NCBI GenBank assembly: GCA_964500725.1
Contig: CAZCNP010000001.1
Location: forward strand, 64,766-128,765
DNA length: 64,000 bases
Direction: 5' to 3'
Origin: an uncultured Gammaproteobacteria bacterium
GTDB lineage: Bacteria; Patescibacteriota; Microgenomatia; Daviesbacterales; UBA10151
Shown: positions 28,896-36,705 of the stretch, piece after piece
Layout of the letters: every line of letters begins with the position of its first letter
Numbering within the stretch: the stretch's first letter is position 1
Made by a program: the position numbers and the translations under genes
The notes under the pieces: model-generated
The model's database searches: none
What the model was told of the DNA's origin: nothing
What the model saw: only the letters and a program-made list of their open reading frames with translations

Positions 28896-29516
28896 GTGAT
28901 TGCAAGGCTTTATATTTGTAGAAATATTGACAAGAGAGCAGAGGAGATTAAAAAGATATTAGCTTCCCACATCGGAAGTGGGAACGTAAATCATCCTGAT
29001 GTTTTATACTTTGAAAAAGATACTAAGTTAGGGATTGCTGAAAGCAGAAAAATAATAGATCACTTTTCTCTAAAACCTTACTCTGCCAAAGGCAGGGTAG
29101 CAGTTTTAGAACAAGCAGAAGATTTAACCCTTGATGCTCAAAATGCCCTGTTAAAAACACTAGAAGAGTTACCTACTGAGGCAGTTTTTATTCTGGGGGC
29201 TGCCTCTGAAGATAACCTTTTACCAACAATTTTATCCAGATGCCAGATTATTAAAGTTCACAGTTCACAGTTCACAGTTCACAGTTATAACAAAGACATT
29301 GAGAAATTGCTGCAGACTACAATTGAGGAAAGATTTGAATATATAGAGAAATTAAAAGATAGGGAGCAGTTCCTATATTCTTTAACAAGCTTTTTCCATC
29401 AAAAATTACCAAACAGCGCTTCATTTTTAGAAAAACTTTTGCAAGCAGAGGGATGGGCCAAACAAAATGTTAATATCAGGGCAATTTTAGAATATTTGAT
29501 GCTTGAAATGCCATAA
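28896..29516 (+). CDS. holB: DNA polymerase III delta' subunit-like protein (short form)
   Basis: Sensor motif TILSRCQII; about 200 aa, AAA+-lid-like. Confidence 0.55.
   Translation: MIARLYICRNIDKRAEEIKKILASHIGSGNVNHPDVLYFEKDTKLGIAESRKIIDHFSLKPYSAKGRVAVLEQAEDLTLDAQNALLKTLEELPTEAVFILGAASEDNLLPTILSRCQIIKVHSSQFTVHSYNKDIEKLLQTTIEERFEYIEKLKDREQFLYSLTSFFHQKLPNSASFLEKLLQAEGWAKQNVNIRAILEYLMLEMP
28964..28984. repeat. 21-bp palindromic element ttcccacatcggaagtgggaa, in-frame inside holB
   Basis: Perfect 7-bp arms TTCCCAC/GTGGGAA with a 7-nt spacer; encodes SHIGSG. Confidence 0.85.
29256..29283. repeat. (gttcaca)x4 heptanucleotide tract inside the holB coding sequence
   Basis: Four perfect copies; encodes VHSSQFTVHS. 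Confidence 0.85.
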
Positions 29517-29523
29517 TTTTCTT

Positions 29524-29551
29524 GACTCTAGACTCTAGTCACTAGACTCTA
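29524..29551. repeat. (gactcta)x4 heptanucleotide tract in the holB-gyrB intergenic region
   Basis: Three perfect copies plus one variant (gtcacta); TCTAGA palindromes. Confidence 0.8.
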
Positions 29552-29597
29552 ATTATGCTAAACTATACACTTAGCCTAAAGGTTTTTTAATCACATT

Positions 29598-34518: not shown

Positions 34519-35328
34519 ATCAACTTTTTTTAATCCTTTAAGTTTCTTGCCAAAAAACCTGCTTGCTATCTGATAAACCCTATCTGGTGCATCTGTGACA
34601 TAAAACTCTAAAGTAGGCTCTTTGCTATCAGAAAGCAAATTATTATTTTCTAAGGTAATTTTTAGCTGTTGGGCTGTTGGAACTGCTGAATCTACAATAT
34701 TAACTTTGGGTCCAACTACATTTCTAATAGTTTCCAACAATAGAGGATAGTGGGTACAGCCTAAAATTAGGATATCAACTCCAGAGGAAATAATTTCTTC
34801 CAAATAATCTTTTGCCAATAATTTAGCAGCTGGATGATCTCCTAAACCTTCTTCTGCTAAAGACACAAAAAGAGGGCAGGCAGTAGCAACCACTTTTATT
34901 TTTAGATTTATTTTTTTTATTTCTTTTTCGTATGCATAACTTGCAATTGTGCCTTGGGTTCCAATCACCCCAATTTTTTTATTTTTTGTTTCTTCTGTAG
35001 CTTTTTTTGCTGCAGGAATAATAACTCCAATTACTGGCACAGGAGAGATCTTTTTAATTTCATCTAAAGCAACAGAAGAAATGGTGTTACAAGCAACTAC
35101 CAAAAATTTTACTTTTCTTTTTAGCAGAAAATTAACTAACTGCTTGGCAAATTTAGTAATTACTTCCTTAGATCTAGTCCCATATGGAACTCTTGCTGTA
35201 TCACCAATATAAATAATACTTTCATGAGGTAATAGCTTAACTATTTCTTTGGTTACTGTTAAACCACCAATTCCTGAATCAAATATACCAATTGGACTGT
35301 TGTTTGTCTTTCGCATTCTCAAGATCAA
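34504..35328 (-). CDS. murI: glutamate racemase
   Basis: IGIFDSGIGGLTV ... LGCTHYPLL. Confidence 0.9.
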   Translation of the reverse strand: MILRMRKTNNSPIGIFDSGIGGLTVTKEIVKLLPHESIIYIGDTARVPYGTRSKEVITKFAKQLVNFLLKRKVKFLVVACNTISSVALDEIKKISPVPVIGVIIPAAKKATEETKNKKIGVIGTQGTIASYAYEKEIKKINLKIKVVATACPLFVSLAEEGLGDHPAAKLLAKDYLEEIISSGVDILILGCTHYPLLLETIRNVVGPKVNIVDSAVPTAQQLKITLENNNLLSDSKEPTLEFYVTDAPDRVYQIASRFFGKKLKGLKKVDLGPD

Positions 35329-35346
35329 AACGATATAATATCATAA

Positions 35347-36705
35347 ATGCAATCGTTTAAGGATAAAAAAATATTGGTGTTTGGATTGGGCTTAAATCAA
35401 GGTGGAGTAGGGTCTGCTTTGTTTTTTGTAAAACTTGGAGCAGAAGTAAAAGTTACAGATTTAAAAACCAAAGAAGTTTTACAACCCTCTTTAGATCAAC
35501 TCAAAGATTTCCCAAATATTTCCTATACCCTAGGAGAACATAAAAATGAAGATATCGATTGGGCAGATTTAATAATCAAAAATCCTGCAGTTAAGCCAGG
35601 TAATCAATATATTGAATATGCTTTGAAAAATGGCAAACAAGTTGAAACAGATATGGGAATATTCTTACAATCTGTTTTACCATCTCAAATTATTGGGGTT
35701 ACAGGAACTAAGGGAAAATCTACTACTTCTTCTTTAATTTATGAAGTATTAAAAGCTGCTGGTAGAAAAGTAGTCTTTGCTGGCAATATTGGTAAAAGTG
35801 TTTTAGAAACTATCCCCTTTGTTGATAAAGATACCTTAGTAGTTTTGGAAATTTCTTCTTTCCAGTTAGAGGCTTTTGATGCTCATAAAGTTTCTCCTAA
35901 ATGGGCAGTAATAACCAACATTACTCCAGATCATCTAAATTATTACAAATCAATGGATGAATATATAAAAGCAAAAAAGGTAATAGGGAAGTACCAAACA
36001 GAAAAAGATTATATGTTATTGAAGAAAGATGATCCAGTCACCACTAATCCAAGTTTCTTAGAAGGATTAAAAGGACAAATCATTTATTGCTCAACAGAAG
36101 ATTTACCCCAAAATTTTCATCCCCACCTTTTAGGTCAACATAATTTAGGTAATATTGCTGCTGTCTATAACTTAGGAAAGCTGTTTGATATCAACCCAGA
36201 TCTCTTACTCAAAACTCTTACTAATTTTAAAGGGATACCCTTTAGAATGGAGCTTATTAAAGATTGGGATGGAGTAAAAATTTATAATGATACTACAGCT
36301 ACCTCACCTGAGTCAGGAATTCAAGCCATAAAAGCTTTACGTTCCCACATCGGAAGTGGGAAGCTAAATATTATCCTTGTTTGCGGAGGAATGAACAAAG
36401 GAATGGACTACACAGAATATGCCAAAGAGATTAGCAAATCAGTTAAAAAAGTTTTCTTCCTAGAGGGAGACTCTACTGACTCCATTCTCCGGTCATTGCA
36501 AGCGGAGCAAAACAATCTAGAAACTTTTGGGCCATACAACAACTTAGAACAACTCTTGGAAGATGTTAAAAAAGTAGCAAAACCAGGAGATACAATTTTA
36601 TTTTCTCCAGCAGCAACATCATTTAACTTATTCCAAAATGAATTTGACAGGGGAAGAAAATTTAATAAAGCAGTTGAAAAAGTTTTTGGGACAAGTACTT
36701 CTTAG
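35347..36705 (+). CDS. murD: UDP-N-acetylmuramoylalanine--D-glutamate ligase
   Basis: GVTGTKGKSTTSSLI and a Mur ligase C-terminal domain. Confidence 0.85.
   Translation: MQSFKDKKILVFGLGLNQGGVGSALFFVKLGAEVKVTDLKTKEVLQPSLDQLKDFPNISYTLGEHKNEDIDWADLIIKNPAVKPGNQYIEYALKNGKQVETDMGIFLQSVLPSQIIGVTGTKGKSTTSSLIYEVLKAAGRKVVFAGNIGKSVLETIPFVDKDTLVVLEISSFQLEAFDAHKVSPKWAVITNITPDHLNYYKSMDEYIKAKKVIGKYQTEKDYMLLKKDDPVTTNPSFLEGLKGQIIYCSTEDLPQNFHPHLLGQHNLGNIAAVYNLGKLFDINPDLLLKTLTNFKGIPFRMELIKDWDGVKIYNDTTATSPESGIQAIKALRSHIGSGKLNIILVCGGMNKGMDYTEYAKEISKSVKKVFFLEGDSTDSILRSLQAEQNNLETFGPYNNLEQLLEDVKKVAKPGDTILFSPAATSFNLFQNEFDRGRKFNKAVEKVFGTSTS
36342..36362. repeat. 21-bp palindromic element, in-frame inside murD
   Basis: Identical 21-mer, same reading frame (RSHIGSGKLN). 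Confidence 0.85.

Follow-up and report, generated by a model that had tools for sequence, protein, structure and literature searches.

In-frame palindromes in holB, murC and murD as likely REP-like elements of a Candidatus Daviesbacteria REP/RAYT system

Systems of repetitive extragenic palindromes (REPs) and REP-associated tyrosine transposases (RAYTs) have mainly been described in Proteobacteria, Cyanobacteria and a small number of other phyla, and intragenic REPs are met occasionally, as a minority that includes copies in replication and repair genes (PMC3733652). Escherichia coli RayT is reported to bind the REP hairpin in single-stranded form and to cleave it (PMC3733652), and Y1 HUH transposases generally recognise hairpins in single-stranded DNA and cleave at a short tag beside the hairpin (PMC3733652, PMC3116915). 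Here, we describe a 64,000-nt stretch of contig CAZCNP010000001.1 (positions 64,766 to 128,765; hereafter the window), in which one and the same 21-nt palindrome, TTCCCACATCGGAAGTGGGAA, is embedded in holB, murC and murD. What are these palindromes? We consider it likely, with a probability of roughly three in four, that they are REP-like elements of a Candidatus (Ca.) Daviesbacteria REP/RAYT system whose hairpins are mainly intragenic and translated. If so, this would place a REP/RAYT system in the candidate phyla radiation, for which full-text literature searches retrieved no description of such elements.

A hairpin family and the loops it occupies

Within the window, the 21-mer occurs exactly three times, at 28964-28984, 33390-33410 and 36342-36362, all on the + strand; no fourth match was found there even when up to three mismatches were allowed, and the chance expectation is zero, with no occurrence in 100 dinucleotide-preserving shuffles of the window. 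Its perfect 7-bp arms enclose a 7-nt centre, and all three copies are read in one frame as (A/R)SHIGSG(N/K)(V/L)(N/D). The original prediction, which was made from the letters of the window, had described just such a palindrome, at these places, in one shared frame and with similar flanking nucleotides, and each of these statements holds, the similarity in fact reaching past the 21-mer to span a conserved unit of 29 nt (TA-SS-TTCCCAC-N7-GTGGGAA-SS-TA). It had further proposed a look at mRNA structure, and the copies indeed form a stable RNA hairpin (-11.4 to -12.2 kcal/mol; z about -3), consisting of a 7-bp stem, a 2x2 internal mismatch and an outer stem of 3-4 bp. No Rfam covariance model matched at its gathering score anywhere in the window.

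The units fall into two classes. Class A, with the flanks TAGCT-TCCCAC-ATCGGAA-GTGGGA-AYGTA, is found in holB (28960..28988, +; TAGCT-TCCCAC-ATCGGAA-GTGGGA-ACGTA) and in murC (33386..33414, +; TAGCT-TCCCAC-ATCGGAA-GTGGGA-ATGTA), in both cases translated in frame as LASHIGSGNV. Class B has the mirrored flanks, TACGT...AGCTA, and lies in murD (36338..36366, +; TACGT-TCCCAC-ATCGGAA-GTGGGA-AGCTA), where it reads LRSHIGSGKL. As to the host genes, holB (28896..29516, +) encodes a short DNA polymerase III delta'-like protein (PF13177 in its orthologue), murC (33217..34518, +) encodes a UDP-N-acetylmuramate--L-alanine ligase that is 100% identical to P0001 of Ca. Daviesbacteria, and murD occupies 35347..36705 (+). 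These genes had been called unrelated, which needs qualifying in that murC and murD are paralogues; the element positions within them, however, are non-homologous, being in MurC's N-terminal and in MurD's C-terminal domain. The window is ~95% coding. Directly upstream of murC lies a small HicB-like/HicA-like toxin-antitoxin pair (32702-33207; Pfam assignment made on the orthologous pair in locus L033), which is absent in the syntenic locus L032.

How widespread is the repeat? Scanning for its 19-nt core in one genome per species yielded 31 loci, nearly all from metagenome-assembled genomes (MAGs) of Ca. Daviesbacteria; outside this group there was one match in Levyibacteriota and one in a G+C-rich member of the Spirochaetaceae, the latter being compatible with chance. 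MAGs with more than one exact copy held two to eight. The full 29-nt unit was found at 31 sites as compared to 0-2 matches in each of five shuffles, and the arms TTCCCAC/GTGGGAA around any 7-nt centre occurred at 86 sites (~1.03 Mb from 34 genomes of Ca. Daviesbacteria and relatives), mostly within housekeeping genes. Exact copies number 41, 38 of them in the 31 scanned loci and three in the window. Their distribution and frames, which the original prediction had likewise suggested to count genome-wide, are telling: 35 of the 41 lie inside open reading frames (ORFs) of at least 150 aa and few are intergenic, and the coding copies represent 18 distinct sites, 13 of which are in the SHIGSG frame, with the others read as SHFRCG, FPLPMWE, PTSEVG or FPHRKWE (five frames in all). 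At least 14 unrelated host genes carry exact copies, namely those for CysS, an M1 aminopeptidase, PGK, mevalonate-diphosphate decarboxylase, PheT, MurT, RecG, another Mur ligase, AtpG, Def, HolB, MurC, MurD and a transposase.

The DNA spelling of the arms is conserved beyond what codon usage would predict. Each of the arm codons TCC, CAC, AGT and GGG accounts for 14-28% of the usage of its own amino acid in window genes, and the probability of the arms being spelled this way by codon choice alone is ~8e-4 per site. In the flanks, the most conserved dinucleotide on both sides is TA. The centre occurs in both orientations relative to the flanks, and flank and centre asymmetries are uncoupled, perhaps because the centre can flip between its perfect arms. 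Loop identity within and between genomes (0.43 versus 0.28) was set aside as evidence because the loci concerned (L001-L031) had been picked by exact match to the element.

A number of these MAGs were deposited as 'uncultured Gammaproteobacteria' (loci L001, L002, L004, L006-L008, L010, L012-L015, L019, L020, L022 and L025-L027, from the binchicken third-party-annotation (TPA) assemblies CAYQAW01, CAZYPW01, CAZZHC01 and others). Their holB-gyrB-murC-murD synteny is that of Daviesbacteria and their DNA is 68-87% identical to the window; the Gammaproteobacteria label appears to be wrong.

Alignment with orthologues, another check that had been proposed, identifies the SHIGSG peptide as an insertion, missing in solved MurC and MurD structures and in many close orthologues. 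Solved MurC structures have a 6-residue gap exactly at ASHIGS, and in an AlphaFold2 (AF2) model of the window protein (predicted local distance difference test (pLDDT) score 91.7), residues 58-67 form a coil linking a short helix to a strand, and confidence drops there. Site states in murC were read from 120 MurC orthologues and, in addition, from 80 MurC loci that had been drawn from metagenomes via conserved motifs independent of the element. The site is empty (GHxPxHLExVDIL, 39 nt) in ~26 of ~65 distinct loci, holds the exact element in 6-7 and the same arms with another 7-nt centre in ~7; among the remaining loci are other small hairpins (e.g. ACACCCC-A-GGGGTGT and CCACCCC-G-GGGGTGG) and large nested expansions. 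One murC variant, TCCCAGAC-CAC-GTCTGGGA (L042), differs from the element by paired compensatory changes, and in some orthologues the element's His codon replaces the invariant His56 (GHSASHIGSG forms). Expansions of the MurC loop by 40-70 low-complexity residues were seen in the orthologues P0007, P0042, P0068, P0069 and P0079 as well as in loci L037, L056 and L111. Several of them share a '...QNDK...' or 'RLRGNDK' peptide, which suggests yet other repeat families stacked at this site.

In murD, the empty consensus, AIKTFPNCILICGG (69 nt), is the dominant state, and the window allele measures 93 nt; removal of 27 nt from the latter leaves TTA|AAT, with TA on each side. Filled alleles are diverse. 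In the window and L027, a class B unit follows TTA at a gain of 24 nt; in L011, class B lies further downstream by two codons (+27 nt) and has a CTA/TA repeat to either side; and L089 and L066 have class A units, with gains of 15 nt and, where a further insertion is nested, of 42 nt. Because the filled alleles differ in register and orientation, sequence comparison indicates that this one loop has been hit independently at least three times. Fused forms of murD were also encountered, with a C-terminal His_Phos_1 domain in L032 (12108-14027) and with a ~400-aa N-terminal extension, resulting in ORFs of 810-840 aa, in L016 (4468-6984), L036, L049 and L096.

The element fills the holB site in the window, L027, L004, L053 and L086; L036 has variants of its centre, and in the close relative L032 the copy has decayed. 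Insertions of 21 and 42 nt are nested in the element's loop at holB in L016 and L024/L090, and such nesting inside the element's own loop is seen in holB and murD alike. In L049 and L064, the holB site harbours hairpins of two other families, E3 and E4, which recur in murC or def elsewhere. The def gene of the window carries a different hairpin, TCCAGGG CGACA CCCTGGA, in frame at 39703..39721 (+). At the same def site we find the 21-mer element in L011 (4990) and an E4 hairpin in L033 (8368), and the window hairpin probably belongs to a sister family occupying the same loop. E4 itself has the outer flanks of the 21-mer element, yet not its core.

Do hairpins of this class move? Recent polymorphism was observed for one sister hairpin only, E2 (CCCCGATTNAATCGGGG), and it shows that the class of small hairpins is mobile. 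Loci L096/L097 and L113 are 98.9% identical over 9 kb, and in murC of L096/L097 the loop of a different hairpin has taken up a clean E2 insertion of 21 nt, consisting of CCCCGATTTAATCGGGG and a 4-nt tail. For E2, a further pair of cleanly filled and empty sites, L024 versus L016, is found in murC directly after the element. In total, E2 comprises eight distinct sites in seven loci, including a variant in the window, the intergenic hairpin TCCCGAT ATA ATCGGGA (55275..55291, +), with CCCCGATTTAG just before it. No TA duplication is present at the clean E2 insertions, the L096 versus L113 junction being marked by AC microhomology, and the nested holB insertion of L016 lacks any duplication at all.

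Further small features deserve mention. A perfect 11-bp-stem hairpin, ATCCAGCACCT TCAA AGGTGCTGGAT, at window positions 49219-49244 lies in frame in the ORF of a XerC/D-like tyrosine recombinase (48646-49569) and may represent another in-frame hairpin family; a hairpin with an 8-bp stem is located at 49735-49754. Near-identical strains (L009 versus L045 and L041 versus L045; 99.6-99.7%) are separated by a 21-nt non-palindromic in-frame indel, CTGGCAGCAATTTTTGGGAGA, that is unrelated to the hairpins.

A Y1 transposase gene on the same contig

The first lead to an enzyme came from a tblastn search with an IS200 TnpA sequence, which returned one real hit, in L092; recurrent weak hits of the same query, inside a fused MurD-like ORF, were spurious. 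The L092 ORF (1296-1970) encodes a member of the Y1_Tnp family (PF01797), scoring 40.5 bits where the cut-off is 23, and homologues of it coincide with three of the exact 21-mer copies, in L002, L017/L028 and L030. This Y1 family is widespread in Daviesbacteria and Levybacteria: PF01797 was recovered in 120/120 best hits, nearly all of which keep the motif YIHRNxFPLxxWE or a close variant, and predicted N-terminal extensions of the homologues (MTSGN..., MWE...) betray a hairpin upstream. The gene neighbourhood is constant, running from a class I tRNA synthetase via Y1_Tnp to the atpB operon (L115, L116, L118 and L119). Given this conserved synteny, the Y1 gene was to be expected just left of the window. 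Locus L119 (contig JACQIW010000013.1 of the Ca. Daviesbacteria assembly GCA_016198315.1), retrieved via the flank of the window NusB gene, matches window positions 1-11609 without a mismatch and, based on 11,609 nt of identity, represents the same contig as the window.

It is on this contig, 5.5 kb left of window position 1, that an intact 215-aa Y1 ORF resides (window coordinates -6168 to -5521; L119 2593-3240, minus strand), with the motifs NHFHLL (HUH) and KYIHRN (catalytic Tyr). The gene both contains and is bracketed by the hairpin: an exact 21-mer lies within it at -5978, just past the catalytic tyrosine, a same-arm hairpin is found 42 nt upstream of the start, and a one-mismatch hairpin follows the stop, with YGTAG 3' of the hairpin in all three. 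A further same-arm hairpin is located in recG, at -575. The same three hairpins, upstream (30-50 nt before the start), internal (in FPLPMWE codons) and post-stop, are present in L119, L002, L030 and L116-L118; L115 has the upstream and internal ones, and none within 250 nt after the stop. In these sequences, the layout of gene plus flanking hairpins ("REPtron") is conserved, and it is syntenic across the clade. The L092 protein, a more distant homologue (36-46% identical), is encoded between direct copies of a different hairpin, TTTGGCAACACCGGGTGTTG; since this homologue is bracketed by a hairpin of its own, each transposase clade may have its own cognate hairpin.

What kind of Y1 enzyme is this? 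Its sole NCBIfam hit is the REP-associated tyrosine transposase model, NF047646. When an AF2 model of the family (pLDDT 85) was compared to solved structures with Foldseek, the best match was 4ER8 (E 2.5e-5, probability 1.0), that is, E. coli RayT bound to a REP hairpin, followed by IS608, ISDra2 and IS200 TnpA. A phmmer search of the transposase against PDB sequences retrieved nothing, and the kinship is seen only by fold comparison. The protein is most similar to RAYT, and the hairpin is most likely the recognition structure of a Y1 HUH transposase.

Weighing the readings

How might such a system operate? Extrapolating from characterised Y1 HUH enzymes, the transposase would bind the single-stranded hairpin through its conserved arms, cut beside it and join it into single-stranded targets, which would include, with some preference, the exposed loops of resident hairpins. 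We infer that the enzyme moves or maintains the dispersed copies in this manner, with the cleavage and insertion chemistry to match. As the genome is ~95% coding, most insertions would land in genes; the survivors would be those that keep the frame and sit in tolerant surface loops, the others being removed by purifying selection. Such a filter would bias the surviving copies toward the frame of the small, flexible peptide SHIGSG, and would leave the same loops of holB, murC, murD, def, atpG, recG and others repeatedly occupied. The arms would be kept while the centres drift because it is the arms that the enzyme is proposed to recognise. In line with this, the first of three explanations offered in the original prediction, a miniature in-frame insertion element, has gained most from the present data, with empty orthologous sites being common, registers and orientations varying, exact copies spreading over at least 14 unrelated host genes, five frames and intergenic DNA, and a gene for a candidate cognate transposase being present on the contig.

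Several observations nonetheless speak against a REP/RAYT system. Among the loci compared, the 21-mer element itself was never caught in the act of transposition. Its murC, murD and holB copies sit at the same sites in genomes that are only 70-85% identical, and yet are exact; they are therefore old, and simple insertion followed by neutral decay fails to explain them. The net gains at filled sites (+6, +15, +18, +24 and +27 nt) seldom equal the length of one element, so that secondary deletions or patch replacement must be invoked. GTAG is found 3' of the hairpin in 14 of the 41 exact copies and GTAA in eight more, the side opposite a 3' GTAG carrying TAGC. The Y1 family scores 40-54 bits with NF047646, under the cut-off of 80, which makes it a divergent relative. 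Lastly, the copies are single hairpins, doubling having been seen just once, as a partial left-arm repeat at L011:2652, whereas the mobile unit proposed for Pseudomonas, the REPIN, is an inverted doublet (PMC3116915).

Uncoupled asymmetries, small net gains, exact old arms and the succession of families hint at replacement or conversion at resident hairpins besides fresh insertion. Taken to its end, this would mean that the Y1 enzyme and the hairpins, beyond mere parasitism, form a domesticated system that time and again rewrites a fixed set of surface loops by site-directed cassette exchange, a proposition that we regard as unlikely. Here, the enzyme would recognise resident single-stranded hairpins and replace or re-template them, and the 21-mer inside the transposase ORF could couple expression or activity of the enzyme to the state of the hairpin population. 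Cassette exchange would account for exact arms at orthologous sites over long divergence, for hairpin families succeeding each other in the holB, murC, murD and def loops, and for net length changes that look like patch replacement.

Alternatively, the palindrome could be a host-selected cis element, that is, a DNA or mRNA hairpin kept for a function in the cell, such as binding of a regulatory or nucleoid protein, RNase cleavage or ribosome pausing, by which genes for replication, the cell wall and other housekeeping tasks would be linked, with the transposase-linked copies being incidental. Identical arms in rare codons at orthologous sites whose flanks are only 70-77% identical and whose centres vary would fit this idea, as would the strong sense-strand and one-frame bias (13 of the 18 distinct coding sites) and the stability of the RNA hairpin (~-12 kcal/mol). 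We find it quite unlikely, however, as close relatives keep the genes despite empty murC and murD sites or a decayed holB copy, unrelated hairpins take the same loops in other lineages, and nested insertions split the hairpin while the gene is retained. Moreover, the host genes have no pathway in common, Rfam gave no match, and tolerability of the SHIGSG peptide explains the frame bias equally well. An mRNA hairpin that coordinates replication and cell-wall genes, the third of the explanations first offered, likewise finds no support, in view of the close relatives that lack the hairpin, the unrelated hairpins at the same loops in other lineages and the many pathways to which the host genes belong.

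Very unlikely, in our estimation, is the growth and spread of palindromes without any dedicated transposase, through quasi-palindrome template switching together with short-patch gene conversion, which would reduce the copies at the Y1 gene to happenstance. Template switching could well produce the net length changes, which resemble patch replacement more than clean insertion, the paired compensatory changes (C-G to A-T in L033, and TCCCAGAC/GTCTGGGA in L042) and a centre found in both orientations relative to the flanks, and in L101 the native murC sequence, CAC CTG GAA GGT G, already forms a small palindrome. What it leaves unexplained are the recurrence of one 29-nt unit in 14 or more genes that are not homologous, the 21 nt cleanly inserted in one of two strains of 98.9% identity and the conserved three-hairpin layout around the transposase across the clade; in addition, the arms are conserved in sequence, beyond mere complementarity.

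The conserved TA dinucleotides raise the question of whether the unit might be a minimal miniature inverted-repeat transposable element (MITE) of a TA-duplicating DDE transposon of the IS630/Tc1-mariner type. The terminal TA would then have arisen by target-site duplication, with TTA(GC/CG)TT, the outer inverted repeat of 7 nt, as the terminal repeat. TA is the best-conserved flank dinucleotide on both sides, removal of 27 nt from murD of the window and of L011 restores a plausible TA-containing sequence, and E4 combines the same outer flanks with another core. On the other hand, TA is self-complementary and hence indistinguishable from a part of the palindrome, the cleanest new insertion (L096 versus L113) has AC microhomology and the nested one in holB of L016 no duplication, and no DDE transposase was seen, whereas the Y1 gene has the same arms around and inside it. 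A MITE is therefore highly improbable. As for a shared SHIGSG motif under protein-level selection in three enzymes, the occurrence of one peptide in three proteins and the element's His in place of MurC His56 in some orthologues count for next to nothing against codon-for-codon identity with rare codons, the same DNA in four other frames and in intergenic DNA, and the absence of the peptide from solved MurC and MurD structures and many close orthologues.

Other candidates were rejected. A chance repeat is ruled out by the expectation of zero, recurrence in several frames and the rare-codon spelling. A DNA uptake sequence, considered since the window is rich in type IV pilus genes, would be a short abundant motif, not a 21-nt hairpin with only 2-8 exact copies per genome. 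Likewise, no array, no template repeat and too short a length dispose of a CRISPR repeat, a target of a diversity-generating retroelement, an intein or an intron remnant, and an exact 21-mer match that could point to a phage origin was not found in IMG/VR. The dif site of the Xer system is a single intergenic 28-bp site per replicon, at the terminus, with 11-bp arms and a 6-bp spacer; the present element exists in several copies, lies inside genes and has arms of 7 bp around 7 nt. Of the second explanation first offered, a recombinase or nuclease site, what survives is thus the hairpin as putative recognition structure of a Y1 HUH enzyme; a dif-like nature does not, and neither architecture nor copy number ties the element to the two tyrosine recombinases of the window.

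The window has other features of note. A large type IV pilus cluster (8000-28900) comprises nine pilin-like genes with a common 54-nt N-terminal repeat, along with prepilin peptidase-, PilC-, PilT- and PilB-like genes, and PilM/N/O-like genes lie at 3900-6200; L032 and L119 share this order of pilus genes. A GIY-YIG nuclease domain that stands alone, as a protein of 81 aa, is encoded among the pilin genes (16675-16920), an NYN-domain protein at 11178-11813 and the second tyrosine recombinase at 59902-60918, none of these three genes being linked to hairpins.

Significance and comparison with known systems

A REP/RAYT system in Ca. Daviesbacteria would illustrate how such elements live without intergenic space, in a ~95% coding genome where hairpins are carried as translated loops of essential genes, the transposase gene included. 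Since the copies sit in conserved coding sequence and many orthologous sites are empty, codon-level detail is available on element boundaries, on independent hits, on nesting and on decay. Extragenic REPs seldom allow this, and the long-standing problem of REP copying and maintenance thereby becomes more tractable. There are also practical implications: length variation and odd G/S-rich protein loops in these bacteria can be scars of mobile DNA instead of adaptations, and exact repeats of 21-29 nt can seed misassembly or spurious "motif" calls.

Which described systems come closest? With IS200/IS605 elements, the present system has the transposase fold in common, IS608, ISDra2 and IS200 TnpA being the fold matches next after RayT, and those elements, too, are recognised in single-stranded form through subterminal hairpins, a short tag lying beside the hairpin. 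In contrast to them, the gene is syntenically fixed, and TnpB, separate left and right ends and autonomous elements in multiple copies are all absent. Rickettsia palindromic elements (RPEs), roughly 100-150 bp in length, were reportedly described by Ogata and colleagues in 2000 as lying in frame in protein-coding genes, where they are said to be tolerated in surface regions. RPEs thus offer a parallel for palindromes in frame within the coding genes of a small genome. RPE-type repeats have been treated as CGTC-tagged REPs, with intragenic copies listed and no dedicated transposase (PMC3733652). The elements in Ca. Daviesbacteria differ from them in having a 29-nt unit and a candidate cognate Y1 transposase.

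The GC clusters of yeast mitochondria are short G+C-rich palindromes in an A+T-rich genome, in frame in var1, with TAG/AG terminal repeats, fast loop change, merging and nesting, and preferential conversion (PMC8811140). TAG...TAG/TAA flanks, variable centres within constant arms and frequent nesting recall these features. GC clusters, however, belong to an organelle and have no known transposase, and some of them are bypassed in translation, for which we see no evidence here. For Nostoc punctiforme, Elhai and colleagues are said to have reported in 2008 small dispersed repeats (SDRs), hairpin repeats of 21-27 nt that nest and vary in presence between relatives, reportedly without describing them as mainly in frame in essential genes. 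A link of the Nostoc SDRs to RAYTs has only been suggested (PMC3116915).

REP/RAYT systems themselves are matched in several respects. The repeats are short imperfect palindromes, here of 29 nt with a 7-bp stem, and have unpaired dinucleotides between stem and terminal tag, as in the GTAG-1/2 families (PMC3733652). A Y1 HUH gene is bracketed by its own hairpins, and it may, as in those systems, be single-copy and vertically inherited, given its shared neighbourhood in the contigs of L115, L116, L118 and L119; the size of the hairpin family varies among related genomes; and the best fold match of the enzyme is 4ER8. Among the differences, the copies in Ca. Daviesbacteria are mostly intragenic, in frame and translated, whereas REPs elsewhere are extragenic, and they reach up to ~10 per genome in the DNA seen as opposed to hundreds. 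As tag, one side bears TAGC and the 3' side YGTA(G/A), in mirror position to the 5' GTAG of E. coli REPs; an exact copy lies inside the transposase ORF, adjoining the catalytic tyrosine; the enzyme scores under the NCBIfam RayT cut-off; and the host is a bacterium of the candidate phyla radiation. The system thus departs from described REP/RAYT systems in being neither extragenic nor high-copy and in the NCBIfam score of its enzyme, while it has their core architecture.

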